NCBI GenBank assembly: GCA_951406725.2 | Contig: OX597827.1 | Coordinates: 73,470,001 to 73,534,000, forward strand | Reading direction: 5' to 3' | Source of the DNA: Octopus vulgaris | Lineage: Eukaryota | Length of the DNA: 64,000 nt | Shown here: one piece after another, positions 12,614 to 31,162 of the stretch | Layout: each line of letters begins with the position of its first letter | How positions within the stretch are numbered: position 1 is the first letter of the stretch | Translations under genes and position numbers: made by a program | The notes under the pieces: model-generated | Database searches by the model: none | What the model was told of the DNA's origin: nothing | Seen by the model: only the letters and a program-made list of their open reading frames with translations

Positions 12614-14161
<1,548 letters not shown>

Positions 14162-14476
14162 CTGTTGAACTGGACGGACGTCTATTTGTTTCTCTCCCGA
14201 GTCAGTAGCAAGCTACACAGCTTCAAAACTAACTGACCTTAAATATATATATATTTGTAACCACGTGTTTGCCTACAAACCCGTAAGTACGTTTTCATTT
14301 AACTACAAATTGTTATATACACCTGTTTTTCTTTTAATATCCTCAAACAACCAAATAATCAAAAACTCACACCCTTAAGAGAGAACATTTATATATATAT
14401 ACACTTCTTTAACTCCCAAGAAAGAATATATATATTTTCAAAAATCAAAAGGAAAACAAACAAAAGAAAAACAAAC

Positions 14477-15598
14477 ATGACTAACTTGCAGGCCTGCAAC
14501 AGACGAAATTGGTCTGATAACGAAATTGATGTTTTAATAAACACATGGCTCTCTCTTTCCCAAACAGAAAATCTAAATGTCTTGTGTTTGAATGAGATTG
14601 CCGAAAAAACATCACAAGTGGTCAACACACGATCCGTCAAACAGATTCGTAGCAAGTTGAAACATATCGAAGTATCTTTCAAACTGATAAGAGGCCATTA
14701 TGAAAAGCTTCTACATATTTTCACAGTTCAAGAACAACAACAGCTAGAAAATCAGCAGCCACAACAACAACAACAACAGAATGAGCCACTCCTGGTTCCC
14801 AACACAATGGCTGACCCTGACATCGGTCAGGCACAACAACAACAACAACAGCCACAGCAACAAGAACAACAACAGCCACTCCTCAACTCTAGCTTACTAG
14901 ACGATTCACTAAATGCCAGTATCTTTTCACCGCTCTCACAGCAACCACCACAATTATCATCATCATCATCACCACCGCTGCCACCATCGTCTTCTATCAC
15001 CAAAAATACCAACAGAAAACCAAATAAGAAACCACTGCCCTCTTCCCCCACATCACCACCTCAATACTACTGCAGTAACAAAAACTTAAAGAAACATAGG
15101 AAGCAGAATGCGCCCCCCACGGCACAAACAAGAAATCCCCAAATATGCCGCTATTCACTGCGCCAGAGACTCTGCACAAATAGTGACTGCATCTTCACGC
15201 ATCTACCCGGCACTAGACGCACTACTGGCCAAGGCCAAAGCACGCATCCCACAATAACATCAACACCACCAAATAGTAAATCGAAATTCAAAACACACAC
15301 AACTCGGAGTCCCAAAATCTGCCGGTATTCCCAACGTGAGAGAACATGTCTACTGAGTGACTGTCCCTTCACTCATCTTCCAGGGACCCGACGCACAAAC
15401 AGAAACGGGGCCTCAAGCCAACACACAAACCTGAATAACAATAAAAATAGAAACACACCATGCTGCAGTAATGCTGGTCCAGTCTTTTCAGGAAGACACA
15501 AAAACAACAACAACAAAAGTGGAAACTACAACCCTATCCAACAGTGCAACCACACCTCCAGCCAAAAACTGCTCCCTAAGCAGGAAAATTCTTTTTAG
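14477..15598 (+). CDS. LINE-A ORF1: Myb/SANT-like trihelix domain, polyQ, two CCCH zinc fingers
   Basis: RRNWSDNEIDVLINTW..RSVKQIRSKLKHI resembles trihelix Myb. CRYSLRQRLCTNSDCIFTH and CRYSQRERTCLLSDCPFTH are C-x8-C-x4-C-x3-H, each followed by LPGTRRT. Confidence 0.8.
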   Translation: MTNLQACNRRNWSDNEIDVLINTWLSLSQTENLNVLCLNEIAEKTSQVVNTRSVKQIRSKLKHIEVSFKLIRGHYEKLLHIFTVQEQQQLENQQPQQQQQQNEPLLVPNTMADPDIGQAQQQQQQPQQQEQQQPLLNSSLLDDSLNASIFSPLSQQPPQLSSSSSPPLPPSSSITKNTNRKPNKKPLPSSPTSPPQYYCSNKNLKKHRKQNAPPTAQTRNPQICRYSLRQRLCTNSDCIFTHLPGTRRTTGQGQSTHPTITSTPPNSKSKFKTHTTRSPKICRYSQRERTCLLSDCPFTHLPGTRRTNRNGASSQHTNLNNNKNRNTPCCSNAGPVFSGRHKNNNNKSGNYNPIQQCNHTSSQKLLPKQENSF

Positions 15599-18500
15599 CC
15601 ATGTTGAACATGGCAAAAGAGATACACAAAAACATTCTAGCCATCACTCAACACCATCCTATGCTATTACCCCAGTGCACCAATTCCCCACATTGCTGCC
15701 ACTAACACACACAAAAAATCCAAGCCCCCTGCAACAGTCAAAACCAGCCACTACACTAACCTCCACATTCCTACTCAATGCACAAGGTGTCAGCCCTTCC
15801 ATCAATGCACAAAAATGGAAGGTCCAATTCATTGAAGACTGGGTTGGTAACCATTCACACCACATCCCTTTCTTCATTCTCACTGAGACCCACCTTGACA
15901 ACTCCCACTTGGAAGCCGAAGTGAGAGTGAAGAATTTCACAACCATCCGCGCGGATCGTATCGGCAGGAGGAAGGGTGGAACTGCCATTTTCCTGCATGA
16001 TTCATTTACGGCAGATGGAAATAGTATATTCTCCAACGGCTACTGTGAATCAGTCACCGTGCACAACAAAGCCAATGATCTGACAGTAATTGGGCTCTAT
16101 AGGCCGCCCCAAACACCCATACTGTGCTTTAAAGAATGCCTCAACAGCATTAAGTGCTTTATTCAACAGTGCCATTCTAGCAACATACTCATGATGGGAG
16201 ACTTCAATCTACCCTGTGTTGACTGGACTACAAACTGTTTGAAACCAAGCACTCCCGCCTCAACCGCTGACAAAGAAGCAGCAGAGTCACTTTTCGACTT
16301 TACGAATGAGTTTTTCTTGTCCCAACTTGTCCTTGCACCAACAAGACATCAGAACATTTTGGACCTAGTGTTTAGTAACCACACTAACACTATACATAAC
16401 GTTACAGTGGAAAAAACCCTTCTTTCAGACCATGACATGGTTCTCTGTAACATGAAATTCCACCAGCCGAAAGCTAATCCTAGTGACCTTCCTCCAGCCC
16501 ACCCATTTGACAACATGGATCTCCATAAAGCCAACTGGGATGCAATCAGGAACGAGCTATCAAATGTTGACTGGTCCTTTACACATACACACATCTCCAC
16601 CAACCATAAAACATCTTGGCAGATCTTTGTAGACACCGTCACAGACATATGTGCAAAACACTCCCCACCAAGACCTGTGAACAAAAAGTGCAGAATCCCC
16701 CAAAACAGAAAAACCATTATCAGAAAAATAAAAAGAACAAACAAAAAAATTAACAAACTAAAGTACTGCCAACAGCAACACACACATTCGACGGCTATCG
16801 CACTGCTTGAATCCAAAAAATATAACCTCCAACAATGCATGAAGTCCCTCATCAATAACCAAAGATCAGCTGAGGAGAAGTGGGCCATTGAAAAAATCAA
16901 ACTCAACCCCAAAGTGTTCTTTTCATTTGCGAGGAAACGCAGGGTCACTGTCTCCACTGTAGGCCCTCTAATTGACGAAACTGGCACTCTCCAAGATAAT
17001 GCCAAATCCATGGCCGAGATACTGCAGAAACAATACTGCTCTGTTTTCAGCAATCCTGATATGGCCGATCTGGGCTGTATCAGTGATGTCAACCCCCAAC
17101 ACACTATATCGGACATAACGTTTAGTGCCCCTGATGTCTTAGCGGCGATAAACGAAATAAAACACAATTCAGCAGTAGGCCCCGATAGGTTCCCTGCTTG
17201 TGTCCTGAAGGTGTGTCGACACCAACTTGCATCTCCCCTTGCTAATCTGTGGAGAAACTCACTGGATGCTGGCTATATTCCAAAAAACCTTCTGTCCCAG
17301 TCTGTTGTCCCAGTTTTCAAAAAGGGAAACAAGTCCCTTGCAGTGAATTACCGTCCGATCTCACTCACCTCTCATATCATCAAGGTATTTGAGAGGGTGG
17401 TGAGATCTCAAATAACCCAATTTCTGGAAAGCAACAGACGGCTGATCTCCAACCAACATGGGTTCCGTAATGGAAGGGACTGCCTAACGCAGCTCCTGCA
17501 TCACTTTGAGGACATTTTGAGAGCTTTGGGAGAGGGCTCCAACACCGATGTCATCTACCTTGATTTCAGTAAGGCCTTCGACAGGGTCGATCACAAGATC
17601 CTATTGAAAAAACTATCCAACATTGGTGTCTCTGGAAAGTTACTGAAATGGATTAAGTGTTTCCTGACAGACAGATCTCAACATGTTGTAGTTGAAGGGG
17701 TAAAATCAAGCCCAGCCAAAGTCAGTAGTGGCGTTCCGCAAGGCACTGTGCTGGGCCCACTTCTTTTCATCATTTACATTAATGACATTAATGACATCAT
17801 CAAGCACAGCAACATAAAAATCTTTGCAGATGACTCCAAGATACAGAAGGTCATAAATGAGGCGAGTGACCGGACATGCCTTCAGTCAGATCTACTGGCT
17901 GTTATCCAATGGGCAGAAAAAAACAATATGCTGCTGAACGAGGATAAATTTGAGCTAATCCACTTTGGAAAAGAGGATGCCCTGAAACTCCCATACTCCC
18001 TTCCTTCAGGTGAAACTCTCGCGGCGTCCAACAACATCAGAGACTTGGGAGTAATTGTGGACAACAACGTAAGCTGGGCCACTCATATAAACACCAAAGT
18101 TGACATGGCCCGCAGAATGTGTTCCTGGATTCTCAGAACTTTCCAGTCGAGAGATATCCACACCATTATCCTTCTCTTCTCCACTTTTGCCCGACCCCAC
18201 CTTGAATACTGTTGTCCACTGTGGTCTCCCCACACAATACAAGGTATCAAAAAGTCGAAGCACCTCAAAGGGCAATCACAAAAAAGATAGATGGCATGAC
18301 AGGCCTCGACTATTGGGGTCGACTAGAAAAGCTAAAACTCTATTCTCTCCAACGTCGTCGTGAGCGCTACATCATCTGCATGATGTGGAAAATATTCCAT
18401 CAGCATTGCCCAAATGATGTTGGCATCACCTTTAAGGTACATCCAAGGCTTGGGCCCCGTGCCATCCGCCCAAAACAAAAATCGCACTCTCATCTCATAA

Positions 18501-18709
18501 CAACAATACGGCACAATTATTTCACCTCAATTGGCCCCGCTCTCTTTAACATTACACCAAAACACATTAAAACAGAAACTGACCCTATAGGGTTCAAGAA
18601 GTCTTTGGACAGATTCCTTCAAGAAATCCCGGATAAACCCCCTACACCCGGATATGTCTCTGTAAACAATAACTCTCTACTTGAGTGGGCCATAGTGCCC
18701 AAATTCTGA
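15592..18709 (+). CDS. LINE-A ORF2: APE endonuclease + reverse transcriptase (one 1-nt frameshift near 18250)
   Basis: LTETHL, GGTAIF, YRPP, MGDFN, LDLVF, SDHD (APE); [37 protein letters not shown] (RT); C-terminus continues in ORF 18212-18709. Confidence 0.92.
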
Positions 18710-18798
18710 CTTGAAAGACTTCACCAGGTGGTGCTATTAAGTTAGACATGGCCTGGGCCAATAATGGCCGAAACCTATCAAAGTATCAAAGTATCAAA

Positions 18799-24647
<5,849 letters not shown>

Positions 24648-25670: not shown

Positions 25671-26110
25671 GTTGTTGTGGCATTCTATAACCGATGATAT
25701 TCAGCATTTAATTTGACTGGAACTGTTGTCAGCACGACGATTAGCTTCATACAAGATATTCAACTGGTATCTGATGAGATATGAGTTCGACTCCCGGGAC
25801 CATCTGCTAAGAATTGTTTTCTGTTATGAGTGTAAAATATGAAACTTTCTGCTGCTTTCACGGGTATACTGCGTTCGAAACTTAGCGTCTTGTCTGCAAT
25901 CTCTCTCTTTCTCTCTCTCTCTGTCTATCTCTCTCTCTCTCTCTCTCTGATCGGTCGTGTTATTCTTTGCTCCGCAGTGAAAGATTGCTTTTGTGCTGAA
26001 AAGTTTGAAAATTTGCTGTTTTGGTCGTCGAGGCCACTTCTTTTCTGCTATTGCAGCAGAGTTCTGCTGTTTTTTCCCCCTTGTTTCAAGGGGGAAGTGA
26101 CGAAAAAGAC

Positions 26111-27726
26111 ATGAATTTGCAACCAGTCACCTCCGAGTCGGAGGAAAACGTTGAAAATTTGTTTGAAGGCATGAAGGCGAAAATGCGGGAGGAGGAAGGT
26201 AGAAGTAAAGAGACGTCTCACGCGAGCGTTACAAAAGCAGACGACAATATGTCTGGCGAAGCTAGTAAACGACAAGAAAAGGCAAAAATAAATTTTGCGA
26301 GTGCAGCAACTCGCCCCTGTGAAAATATAGTCATTAACAAGGAAGAATTAAAGAAATACCAAGGACTACTAAAAAAAGAAGGTGATAATGTGAAGTTGTT
26401 CCCTCCCAGTGAATTGATTTACGCGACGGAGAGAAAAACTGTCATATACAAGACGTATAATGTCAAAAATAAGAAAATTGACTTCGTACAGAGAGAAGCC
26501 ATTGAAAAATGTTTGAGGCCGATATGGCAACAAACAAGTTATATAACAAGGGGTAGTCGCTTCGGCACGGTAGAGGTGCGTTTCCCTAGCGAAGAAATAG
26601 CTAGGGAACATTCAACAAGAACGTTGAAGTCAGAAGAGGTAGTTCTTTTACCATTTTATTTAGGAATGAGAACTAGTAGAATAACGGTTACGGACATTCC
26701 GCCCGAAATAGATGTGGACTTCATAACAGCAGCGATTCTCTTAGGCAAAGAGGAAGAAATTGCCATTATTCAGTCTAAAAGATATCGCCCCACAACCTGG
26801 TATGGACAGGACTTAGAGCTTGTGATCCAAGCGAACCCCTCGGACTTGGAAAAATTGCCAAGCTCCCTCACCATTGGAGATACCACCTTGATGGTAATAG
26901 TCGAGGGAAGAAAACCGAGATGCTATAAATGTGGCGAGAAAGGCCACATACGGTCGAGCTGCAAGAAGACAGCGAAAGAAAATACTACAGAGGCAAGCAC
27001 GACGCCGAAAACAACTTCACCGCTAGAAATAGCAGCCACGTCGCGCACCCCAATTGCCGAAATTCAGCCGACAACTGGAGAAAACAACGACAACAACGAT
27101 GACAACAACATCAACAACATCCAGGAGTGGGTCAACGTGGAAGCTTCAAAAAGAAGACGGAAACGGAAAAATCCACCCTCTTCGGATACACAGGACTATA
27201 CTCTGACACAGACAAGCACACCCACACCCACAAATACAGTCGCAAACACACACGTAGCCAAAAAAACACACACACTGGAAAAAGCACACACAAACAATCA
27301 CACACCTACCACAAGCACGCACACACCTACAGACACCCACGCTTCTACAAGCACACACACACCCACAAACACACACACACAGCCCCCTCCACAATCACCT
27401 AACAAAAAAAAAGAAACACCTTCACGGCGATAAATAAAAACAATAACCCATTAAGGGAAAAAATTAATTTACTGAAATCGGCGAAAAAATATATCGCAAC
27501 AGATATAAATAGTATTATATCCGAAAATGTAGAATTTTATACGATAGATAACAAGGATTATTTTGAAATTAAAAAATCTTTTGCGGAGGATGTAGGCCCG
27601 TTACAGATGAACTTTTCAAGCCATCTGTACAAGCAATTCGCAAAAAAACTGACCTCGCAAAACACAACACTCACAGACAGAAAAGATGAGGGTGAAACTA
27701 CACCCTCTCTTCCGTTAAAACAGTAA
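26111..27726 (+). CDS. Tx1 ORF1 gag-like protein (frameshift in A-run near 27410)
   Basis: CYKCGEKGHIRSSC zinc knuckle, RRM-like region, Thr/His-rich linker; reading continues stop-free in the -1 frame from about 27410 to TAA at 27724-27726. Confidence 0.8.
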
Positions 27727-27745
27727 GTTTTAAACATTCAACTAA

Positions 27746-30700
27746 ATTTTCACATTCTCGTTTAAACTCGGTTGTATAAATATTCGCGGCCTGGGGTCGT
27801 ATTGGAAGCAAGGCTATCTCCTTAACGACCTTAGGTCGCATCGTTTGGATGTAGTGGTAATTACCGAATCCAGACTGAGTGGGCTGCAGGCTTTTTCGCC
27901 CCTTCTAAACGGCTACGAGAAATACATTTCTCCCTGTCGACCTGGAGGGGGAGGAGGAGTGGCAGTGCTGGTCAGGAAAAACCTGGATTTAGAGATTAGA
28001 ACTGTCTTTATAGATCCGGAAGGCAGGTTGGTCGTTTTGGATGTGACGCACAGCAGTGGTAAAGTGTTCAGGCTGGTCGCTGTCTATGCTCCCTGCGAAG
28101 GAAAAGCCGGGCAGAAAGAGTATTTCAAAAGCCTAGAGAATTTTCTTGGCACGTCGAACACGTTAGTATTGCTAGGTGACTTCAACATAATTTGCGATGC
28201 AAGCGTAGATTATGTTGGCTCAAGAAAGAATAAGAGGGGATTACCTCAACTCAACGATATGCTAAGTCATTTCGAATTGGCAGATAGATTCAGACTGGAC
28301 CATCCAGACATTCCAGAGTGGACCTGGGCAAGAAACGACGGGTCGTCCAGATCTTATATCGATAGAATCATAACTAGAAGGAAAGATAAGAAAATACTTA
28401 GCTGTCCACAACACCATATCGTCAGCTACAGCGATCACAAATTAGTGTGTCCTGTACGCTCGACATAGATAGCATGTGTAGACGAGGTACCGGCTACTTG
28501 AAGCTAAACAAGTCACTATTGGACTGTGAAGCCTACAGGAATCGGATTAAACAATTAGTAATGAGGGCGTTAACCGGATCCATTATCAACAATAAATGGT
28601 GGTACGCCCTGAAAAGAGCCATCAAATTTGAGTCAATTAGGTTTAGCAAAGAACTAGCTAGTGCTAGAAACAAAGTAGAAAGGGAACTAGTTAAGGCAAT
28701 AGAGGAGGCAATGAGGTCAGGCAGTGCATCGAAAGTGTTAGCGGCGAGGTTAGCACTAGACCAACATCTCAAAGCTAAACATGAAGGGTGCATTATTAGG
28801 GCTAAGATCCGTGCAATGAGACAGGAAGGGATCAACGCAGCCGGATGGGCCCGGGTGGTAGAGGGCCAGCGTGGCAACAACTCAACCATTCGATCCTTGA
28901 CGGGCCCAAATGGTCGATTAGTAAACGAACCCGAGGAGATGTGCAAGGTGTTTCATGATCATTTCGCCCAGCTATTCGGGAGGAGCGGCGAGCTGGAGCG
29001 CGGGGAGAAGCTCGCAGACTTCCTAGCCGGTTCGCCGCGTCTATCGGGGCCGGACGCGGAATCTTGTGAGGCGCCGATCACAGCCAAAGAAGTCGAGGAT
29101 GTGTTGGCAGAATGCGGCGGGGACAAATCGCCGGGACTCGATGGTCTGCCTTACGAACTCTATAGTAGCATGCCAGACTTGTTTGGGCACCTACTTGCAT
29201 GCGTGTACACCAACTGGCAGCAGAACGGGAGAATTCCTAAGTCTGTGAGCCGAGGGGTGGTAGCGTTGTTAAGAAAGGACCCAAACAACGGGGATTTAAT
29301 TGATAATTTCCGGCCTATCACTCTGCTTAACGCAGAGTTGAAGATCTTGGCCAAGGTCTTAGCAAAAAGGTTGGAAGGGTCGTGGGTGAACTTGTTGGCG
29401 AGGCGCAAACTTGCGCCATCCTGGAAGGACCATCCACGACAATCTCCACTTTCTACGCTATGCCTTAGAAAGGGTAAATAGGATTCCTGGCAAGGGTGGG
29501 GCTATGGTCCACTTGGACCAATCGAAAGCGTTTGATAGGGTGGACCATCAGTATCTGGCGGCGGTCCTCGCGGCGGCTGGCTTCGGCCCGACCTTCCGCG
29601 GATGGATCATCGCTTTATACAGCAACATCGAATCGGTAGTTCGGGTAAATGGTTTCCTTTCGGAGCCGTTCAGCATTGAACGTTCGGTACGTCAAGGGTG
29701 TCCGCTCTCCCCGCTTCTCTACGTTTTGGCCCTCGAGCCGTTGCTGAGGATGTTGGAAACTATGAGAGGCACCCCGCAAGATCTAGGGTGCGGAAAGTCA
29801 GCTTCGGCGTATGCGGACGACATCACCGTCATCGTTTCCCGAGTCGAGCACCTACAGTGGGTGGGTGAGGCCTTAAGGGACTACGAAGCGGTGGCAGAAG
29901 CGAAAGTCAACCGGGATAAATCGGTCGGCTTGCAACTCGGCACCTGGAGGGGCAAGTCGATGTATTCCGACAGCGTCGTAGGACGTTGGACGGAAGGACC
30001 GGTGAAAATGCTTGGGATCTGGTTAGGTCCAGATCTCCAGATAGAGAAGAATTGGAGCGAGGTGGCGAGAAAGGTGGCTCTCCTAACTCAGACATGGTCT
30101 GAACGGAATCTGTCCTTGAAAGGGAAGGCGGAGGTTGCAGAAGTGTTTATCGCCTCTGTAATCACTTACCGCCTAACCGTAGTGCCTTGCCCCGATTCGT
30201 GGCTGAACAAACTGGAACGCATGCTCTTTCGCTTTTTGTGGAGGGGCAGCAGACCTCTTGTAAGGCGCTCTATTTGCTGCCAAAAGCCGCTGAACGGTGG
30301 GTTAGGGATGCCGTGGCTAAAAATGCGCAGACATGCGCTCAGGCTTAGGCACCTCTGGATTTACCTGGACGGTGAGCAGGTGTGGTCTCCGTTTGTCAAG
30401 CTGTTATTTCCACAGTTCACATCGTTTAACGAACTGAACCCATGGATCAAGTGTAGACCGAGGTTGGGCATGTGGCATGCAGAGTGCTATCAAGCACTCG
30501 TGCTTCTCTCCCAGTCGGGCAACGCCGGTGGCGGGGCTACTACCGCGTTCTTCTATAGAGGGTTAGTAGAGTTTAAGTGTGACGACGTCCTAGGAGAAAC
30601 TCTGGGCTTCGACGAAAATCAACTGGCCAGCCTGTTCCAAAGAACATTCGGTCCGGGGCCTATGGATAATTACCAAGAGTCCCTGGCCTGGCAATGTTAC

Positions 30701-31162
30701 AGAGGAGCTTTACCGGTTCGAGATAAGCTCTTTAGACATGGGTGTGCACCTTCGCCGGTTTGTGCAAGATGTAAGAGGGACAGTGAAACTGTCCTGCACG
30801 CGATTGTGCAATGCCCCAAGGTGACTGAACTCTGGACTTATGTCGAACACCTGCTGTCGCATTCGAGAAGAGTACAACTGTCGAGCGAATCTGTAATTAA
30901 GATAGTTCCGCCGACCTTCCTGAATAGGGAGGAGCGAGCCTGTTTTCTTTCGGTAGTTGCTATGGCGAAAGAAGTAGTGTGGAAGACGAGAGTAAAAGGA
31001 ATTGCAACAGGCATGTTTATCTCCAGTCTCGAGCTAATCGACTTTTTCGTTTTCCACATGAAACGGAAAATAAGGCTGGAGAAGAAATGCCTGTCGCAAA
31101 GTGTGTTTCGTAAAAGATGGAAGTCTATAGCAAGTGTGTTGCGAGTGAAAGAACCTATTTAA
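27746..31162 (+). CDS. Tx1 ORF2: APE + RT + C-terminal zinc finger, several small frameshifts, no AUG before the APE N-terminus
   Basis: KLGCINIRGL, VYAP, GDFN, IDRI, SDH; KSPGLDGL, FRPITLLN, LDQSKAFDRVDH, VRQGCPLSP, YADD; CARCKRDSETVLHAIVQC. Confidence 0.9.

Follow-up and report, generated by a model that had tools for sequence, protein, structure and literature searches.

How long interspersed nuclear elements (LINEs) translate their second open reading frame (ORF2) is a long-open question, with worked examples for few elements. The question is raised by a stretch of Octopus vulgaris DNA of 64,000 nucleotides (nt) (contig OX597827.1, positions 73,470,001 to 73,534,000; here called the window, with positions counted from its first base), which carries a full-length CR1-group LINE, LINE-A of family A, and a 5'-truncated relative, LINE-B of family B. 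An earlier note on this DNA had proposed that LINE-A makes an ORF1-ORF2 fusion by programmed -1 ribosomal frameshifting, at a slippery heptamer obtained by restoring one T to the sequence. Comparison of genomic copies and relatives makes it likely that a programmed -1 ribosomal shift at U_UUU_UUA yields such a fusion; that the shift is ribosomal, and how efficient it is, we infer from these comparisons.

Run length and reading frames at the junction of family A

The junction (15577-15620) reads TAA GCAGGAAAAT TC TTTTT A GCCATGT TGA ACATGGC AAAAGA, exactly as given earlier. With this run of five T (T5), the window copy has an ORF1 truncated by TAG 15596-98; its ORF2, in the +1 frame, opens at 15435 and contains an ATG at 15471. 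Run lengths were counted by a pattern search for copies in the 2.8 Gb genome, which gave 340 places, with 100 listed per gap class. The gap was 6-7 nt at 223 places (among the 100 listed, 92 pure T6, 2 T7 and 6 substitution variants) and 4-5 nt at 117 places (among the 100 listed, 83 T5 and 17 T4), with ~97 T5 copies in family A. An extra T behind 15591 was also found in the contigs of all four sequencing runs, from four studies, thus the restored sixth T is the majority state. In an initial DNA search, 32 of 40 matches were identical to the window copy in having T5, but such a search favours sequences that resemble the query.

In natural T6 copies (L038, L034 and L033), U_UUU_UUA, a heptamer of the X_XXY_YYZ type, stands in the frame of ORF1 as had been proposed, and ORF1 reads QENSFLAMLNMAKEI and ends 41 codons past the Q. 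ORF2 lies in the -1 frame of these copies, closed upstream by the TAA at 15577. The statement that ORF2 lacks an AUG at its start also held, since the frame has to be followed for 204 codons to reach its first Met, which lies 138 codons beyond the Asn of the endonuclease. A T5 consensus with ATG 15471 kept in the ORF2 frame, the outcome that the earlier note had set against its own proposal, was not found, and this ATG is out of frame in T6 copies.

Copies with T5 or T4 and copies with T6 occur side by side on every sub-lineage, which indicates that the T5 loss is recurrent and not inherited. A poor-quality stretch as the origin of T5 was rejected, since the short copies showed no excess of single-base indels elsewhere (0.22 per kb, versus 0.26 in T6 copies; 20 copies of each). 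In families A and B, the sense-strand T6 of the shift site was short in about 30% of the copies (for LINE-B, window 23624-23629, in 27 of 100 copies listed), whereas ten A6-A7 runs of LINE-A were short in 11 of ~370 copy-sites (about 3%). In a third octopus family, family C, the run was short in 1 of 24 copies, a set picked by protein score. Because A6-A7 runs are rarely short, and short copies are otherwise normal, the family A run is a specific indel hot spot. The shortening would come about through a context-dependent error of the assembly or through genuine slippage, on the weak rU:dA duplex, as the element is transcribed or reverse transcribed, and if U6 does slip during copying, short runs may be a cost of having the shift site.

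The T5 form itself might be functional, with ORF2 either started at ATG 15471 or reached through a +1 shift at UUU_UAG_C, as the open frame of the window copy and the number of T5 copies would allow. However, the arrangement occurs in no relative, and T5 as the family state is refuted by the mixing of run lengths on every sub-lineage and by T6 in all four runs, which leaves this explanation next to no credibility. T5 is a recurrent one-base loss at the run and not a second functional form.

The heptamer is conserved in a clade of CR1 elements

A protein search with ORF1 gave no relative at E<=0.001 among 2166 candidates, and a search of viral contigs gave none either; the ORF2 protein search returned 51 homologues. 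Relatives were picked by similarity of the APE endonuclease domain alone, which yielded 80 metagenome and 23 genome-bin loci. The close set comprised 42 loci scoring >=160 (or L177), families A and B included. Left out were L115 and L123, which end before the junction, L121, which is short and has a +1 register and a T5 run, L117, which keeps T_TTT_TTA and is fused by a later indel, and the near-duplicates L129 and L143. Octopus family C, with 73% DNA identity across the APE region, was added, resulting in 37 non-redundant elements; the site of L133 was set by hand at the second Phe, and an old decayed copy, L035, was kept outside the clade counts. The median APE identity among the relatives compared was 36%.

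All 37 elements have a -1 register for ORF2 and a long overlap of 127-631 nt, and the -1 frame is open over 137-632 nt. At the first Phe of the overlap, the heptamer was T_TTT_TTA in 31 elements, T_TTT_TTG in 2, G_TTT_TTA in 1 and G_GAT_TTT in 3. The conservation at synonymous positions exceeds what the protein would need: 29 of 34 Phe-Leu pairs at the junction are written T_TTT_TTA, whereas of the Phe-Leu pairs at other places in these elements 2 of 134 are (Fisher p 4e-25, a value that is overstated because the rows are related). The background use of TTT is 44% of Phe codons and that of TTA 10% of Leu codons, and the codon ahead of the junction Phe always ends in T, across 7 different amino acids. 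From the site to APE, the -1 frame contains 0 stops in 3090 codons, with 273 expected from the upstream rate and 212 in the +1 frame, although this count has some circularity, because the open frame was where the site had been looked for. Upstream of the site the -1 frame closes after a median of 4 codons, and in 26 of the 37 elements no in-frame ATG precedes the APE Asn. The downstream frame is thus -1, open from the site, and mostly without a start of its own.

All site-bearing rows of the tree form one clade (SH-aLRT 99; a quick tree with midpoint root, with L104 and L177 outside it). Distant CR1-type loci showed mixed registers, and T_TTT_TTA in the matching frame was found in 0 of 45 of them. 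U_UUU_UUA is the site of human immunodeficiency virus (HIV), and G_GAU_UUU that of pea enation mosaic virus, according to passages of PMC5009743. In L101, L102 and L104, G_GAU_UUU (Asp-Phe), a shift site of the umbravirus type, stands one codon earlier in place of U_UUU_UUA, and the codon after Phe is free.

Alternatively, slippage of the polymerase at U6 during transcription would give U7 or U4 transcripts with ORF1 and ORF2 fused in frame, and the indel hot spot described above fits such slippage. However, the fused forms T4 and T7 make up ~7% of the copies, where cis preference would be expected to make them the majority. Moreover, the run is kept at exactly six and in codon phase, and the G_GAT_TTT members have only four T ahead of the next base, which renders slippage by the polymerase highly improbable.

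Fusions of the two frames were also seen as such. In L231 of family C and in L117, a one-base indel downstream of the intact site joins ORF1 and ORF2 in frame, and a gene model of 1625 amino acids (aa) from the eukaryote set (P0017) has a part with CCCH-finger ORF1 joined to a related ORF2. Eight distant CR1-type loci (L155, L162, L164, L166, L171, L181, L182 and L187) have ORF1 and ORF2 in the same frame with a single stop near the start of APE, and are candidates for readthrough or reinitiation; several of these are in prokaryote bins and likely represent eukaryotic contamination.

RNA structure downstream of the site

The earlier note had pointed to a hairpin, GCCATGT/ACATGGC, as the stimulating structure. 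This hairpin folds well in family A (-10.0 kcal/mol, z-score -3.8, and -15.8 kcal/mol, z -6.2, when the arm pairing with the U-run is included), but its role as a stimulator was not supported, since it has no spacer and is not conserved; its 3' arm is disrupted in the old copies L035 and L042, and to some extent in family C. The reservation that it lies nearer than the usual 5-9 nt was justified, as it starts at the first base past the heptamer, and a ribosome decoding the site would keep a hairpin without spacer open. An alternative interrupted stem-loop, mutually exclusive with the hairpin, starts 4 nt past the heptamer and equals the short hairpin in stability (-10.7 kcal/mol; z -3.2 on 57 nt and -1.6 on 87 nt), and its outer stem is retained in L035 and missing in family C.

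Across 36 elements, folding peaked in the segment that starts 5 nt past the site, with a mean z of -1.19 +/- 0.23, and was ~0 far away. Consensus folding of six subgroups gave a structure for one of them only, the pair L138/L177, where none of 100 shuffles had an energy that low. In L130/L135, the stem AACTTGGTC/GACCAAGTT corresponds to AACTTGGTT/AACCAAGTT, 10-33 nt past the site, with one compensatory change that falls at synonymous ORF1 positions. The conserved part appears to be the heptamer and not a structure; the 3' structure is modest and differs among families.

Points against a frameshift, and alternative routes to ORF2

Several observations weigh against programmed frameshifting. A third of the family A copies carry a shorter run, and in 5 of the 45 distant loci an open upstream frame contains T_TTT_TTG or G_TTT_TTA. 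Only 9 of the 36 elements folded reach z < -2, a shared 3' fold is absent in the three larger subgroups (alifold energy 0), and family C is almost without 3' structure (-3.5 to -5.1 kcal/mol). Furthermore, an in-frame ATG precedes the APE Asn in 11 of 37 elements, LINE-B and family C included, and TTTTTTAG, which has the shape of a splice acceptor, occurs in 25 of 36 relatives. Family A also has the sequence CCCTAAG 20 nt upstream, which resembles a branch point when judged by the branch-point consensus.

The upstream ATGs bear on the possibility that ORF2 is made by termination-reinitiation or by non-AUG or internal initiation, as in L1 and SART1, with the Phe-Leu codons kept for some other reason. 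In 22 of 37 relatives, ORF1 extends to a stop that lies inside the Leu-Asn codons of the first motif of APE, a Met follows four codons past the Asn in 14, and passages of PMC5009743 describe L1 ORF2 as thought to rely on unusual initiation. However, the upstream ATGs are scattered without a common position, from -1 to -210 codons, most elements have none, and a start past the Asn would delete a conserved APE residue. In Zorro3, mutation of the N-terminal Asn, which would be equivalent to the APE Asn here, reduced jumping to <5%, as stated in a part of PMC1965478. Initiation explains neither the lock on synonymous sites nor the long open -1 frame, and we consider it very unlikely as the general route, although it may act additionally in LINE-B or family C. 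Bombyx SART1 reportedly obtains ORF2 by UAAUG coupling. Such an arrangement was not found in family A, where the ORF1 stop lies 71 nt before the Asn and the first ATG far past it; stop-start coupling is conceivable for LINE-B only.

The T-run followed by AG might instead be a 3' splice acceptor, so that a spliced subgenomic RNA puts an exon with an upstream AUG onto ORF2, and in family C a long pyrimidine stretch upstream of the site would suit this. On the other hand, 11 of 37 elements have no AG directly after the site and nevertheless keep a shift-type heptamer, the run tolerates no C, the 14 nt upstream are not pyrimidine-rich, and another AG lies <=14 nt upstream in 19 of the 25 relatives. 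Splicing at TTTTTAG, which the earlier note had named as evidence that would overturn its proposal, was seen neither in contigs nor in genomic copies: the contigs of four runs span the junction unspliced, with no joint at 15599, although contigs drop rare forms. Genomic copies with a non-T three bases ahead of CCATG numbered 2 only, both of which are run mutants and not spliced copies, where a spliced RNA would be expected to be copied into the genome in cis. There may be other grounds for the G, since the base after UUA affects shifting in HIV according to a passage of PMC5009743, and Phe-Leu-Glu may be a protein motif. In all, the site lacks the pyrimidine tract, AG-free zone and spliced RNA of an acceptor, the last judged on assembled contigs, which may miss rare spliced RNA, and we regard splicing as a very improbable source of the pattern, compared with a ribosomal shift at the heptamer.

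Architecture and setting of the element

The features are listed in Table 1. Genomic copies of family A can be aligned from 14160 to ~18790 of the window. The order in ORF1 is Myb/SANT-like domain, poly-Q, two CCCH fingers, the Phe-Leu helix, and a tail; two CCCH motifs are present in most relatives with sufficient upstream sequence. A further base, at 18249 in ORF2, is missing from the window copy. With APE and reverse transcriptase (RT) in ORF2, no long terminal repeat (LTR) and a simple-repeat 3' tail, LINE-A has the characters of a CR1-group LINE, and no protease domain was found among the Pfam matches of its proteins.

Table 1. Features of LINE-A and of the LINE-B junction in the window
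Feature	Position	Strand	Basis
Full-length CR1-group LINE of family A (LINE-A), set in (TA)n	14160..18799	+	Copy alignments, Pfam APE/RT, RT match
ORF1 in the form of T6 copies, 409 aa	14477..15705	+	Pfam and ORF reading; start ATG 14477
Myb/SANT-like domain of ORF1	14501..14695	+	PF13837, E 3e-05, 24.8 bits, under the curated cut-off of 27
Pair of CCCH zinc fingers in ORF1	15146..15376	+	Weak Pfam CCCH matches
TAA closing the -1 (ORF2) frame, four codons upstream of the site in T6 copies	15577..15579	+	Sequence
Putative slippery site; T5A in the window copy, T_TTT_TTA in most copies	15592..15597	+	Copy counts, contigs, relatives
ORF2 downstream of the site, 1037 aa/codons in intact copies	15597..18709	+	Linker, APE, RT (Pfam)
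Hairpin of the earlier note: stem of 7 bp followed by AAAAGA, which pairs with the U-run; specific to the family, no spacer	15598..15620	+	Folding
Alternative interrupted stem-loop, 4 nt past the heptamer; candidate stimulator	15602..15653	+	Folding
APE domain start (Asn 15777) and RT (17325-18053)	within ORF2	+	Pfam
First in-frame ORF2 ATG in T6 copies, inside the APE domain	16191..16193	+	Frame reading
3' tail, TATCAAAG x3	18776..18799	+	Sequence reading
LINE-B homologue of the junction, with a -1-frame TGA ahead of T_TTT_TTG	23623..23641	-	Sequence; in-frame ATGs precede its APE

The RT stretch of family A matches O.sinensis_46, 59 and 96_LINE letter for letter where compared (supplement of PMC10294476), and these are placed by tree in the CR1 clade of the Jockey superfamily in Table S7 of that study. 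The RT of family A thus appears to belong to the CR1 clade, a placement borrowed from the PMC10294476 tree of the matching RTs. LINE-B resembles O.sinensis_104 in the same supplement.

Both LINE-A and LINE-B lie inside long (TA)n (13500-14159, 18800-20425 and 23800-24640), which possibly reflects microsatellite targeting, and LINE-B ends in (ATCA)n. At 14323, a contig of run X2 (labelled 'DNA?') starts with a loose end, which we take to resemble the SMART template-switch oligo; this could possibly be an RNA 5' end, 163 nt inside the element. A third LINE, at 26009-31162 (+), has a zinc-knuckle ORF1 and an APE-RT ORF2 in several frame-broken pieces, and is presumably Tx1/L1-like.

Proposed mechanism and implications

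We propose that a minority of ribosomes would slip one base back at U_UUU_UUA, giving a predicted fusion of ~1410 aa (374 residues from ORF1 and 1037 from ORF2), which would be the working ORF2 protein. Unshifted ribosomes would complete ORF1, with its conserved helix after Phe-Leu. The shift could occur by tandem slippage of tRNA-Phe and tRNA-Leu, or tRNA-Phe could enter in the -1 frame, a route that a passage of PMC5009743 describes for HIV. The shift may be tuned by the family-specific 3' stems or by the G after the site.

Frameshifting would account for the AUG-less ORF2 of these elements, and if true, the fusion would fix the proportion in which both proteins are made and keep the enzyme bound to its own RNA particle. 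For annotation, it would mean that ORF2 is called from the wrong start, in elements of which a third of the genomic copies lose a base at the run. More broadly, we think it probable that an old and widespread CR1 subclade with CCCH-finger ORF1 makes its RT as a Gag-Pol-like fusion by the HIV-type U_UUU_UUA, with the heptamer near-unchanged at ~36% protein identity while the 3' structure was turned over, which would add ribosomal frameshifting to reinitiation and stop-start coupling as a third main way for LINEs to obtain ORF2.

Comparison with known systems

The literature searched, outside of which fell most subscription journals and the Repbase notes, yielded no account of a conserved slippery site in a CR1 LINE. 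The study of octopus CR1 LINEs (PMC10294476) used RT only, and 'frameshift' occurs 0 times in its main text. The ORF1-type table of PMC4120745 does not contain a CCCH-finger ORF1 among its types, and the word 'frameshift' occurs 0 times in the available text of PMC4120745 and PMC13343379. The LINE passages of PMC5009743 deal with L1 initiation and HeT-A/TART, and contain 'CR1' 0 times. The mechanism proposed here thus seems to be a known one in an undescribed place, with a -1 shift published for TRE LINEs and none found for CR1 LINEs.

The Dictyostelium TRE elements belong to an L1-like LINE group. According to a figure legend in PMC5911963, TRE5-A and TRE3-A require a -1 frameshift for ORF2, and they resemble the present elements as APE-RT LINEs with such a shift. 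They differ in having an amoeba host, and the passages of PMC5911963 give no heptamer for them, whereas here a defined heptamer recurs across a CR1 subclade. Mammalian L1 and Bombyx SART1 share with these LINEs a bicistronic RNA and a low ORF2 output. The ORFs of mammalian L1 are described as non-overlapping, with unusual initiation, in passages of PMC5009743. In contrast to L1 and SART1, the elements studied here have a long -1 overlap and mostly no AUG.

The alphavirus 6K/TF site is U_UUU_UUA as well. The likeness extends to a single conserved shift site with 3' stimulators that are diverse or unstructured, according to a section of PMC5009743, but the shifted product there is a short accessory protein, whereas here it would be an essential enzyme. 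The gag-pol junction of HIV-1 has the identical heptamer, followed mostly by G in these LINEs, and likewise an upstream ORF for a nucleic-acid-binding protein and a polymerase ORF that lies at -1 and has no start itself. Unlike HIV-1, the LINEs are non-LTR elements that encode an APE-RT polyprotein without protease match, and they combine a long overlap with the lack of a conserved 3' stem.

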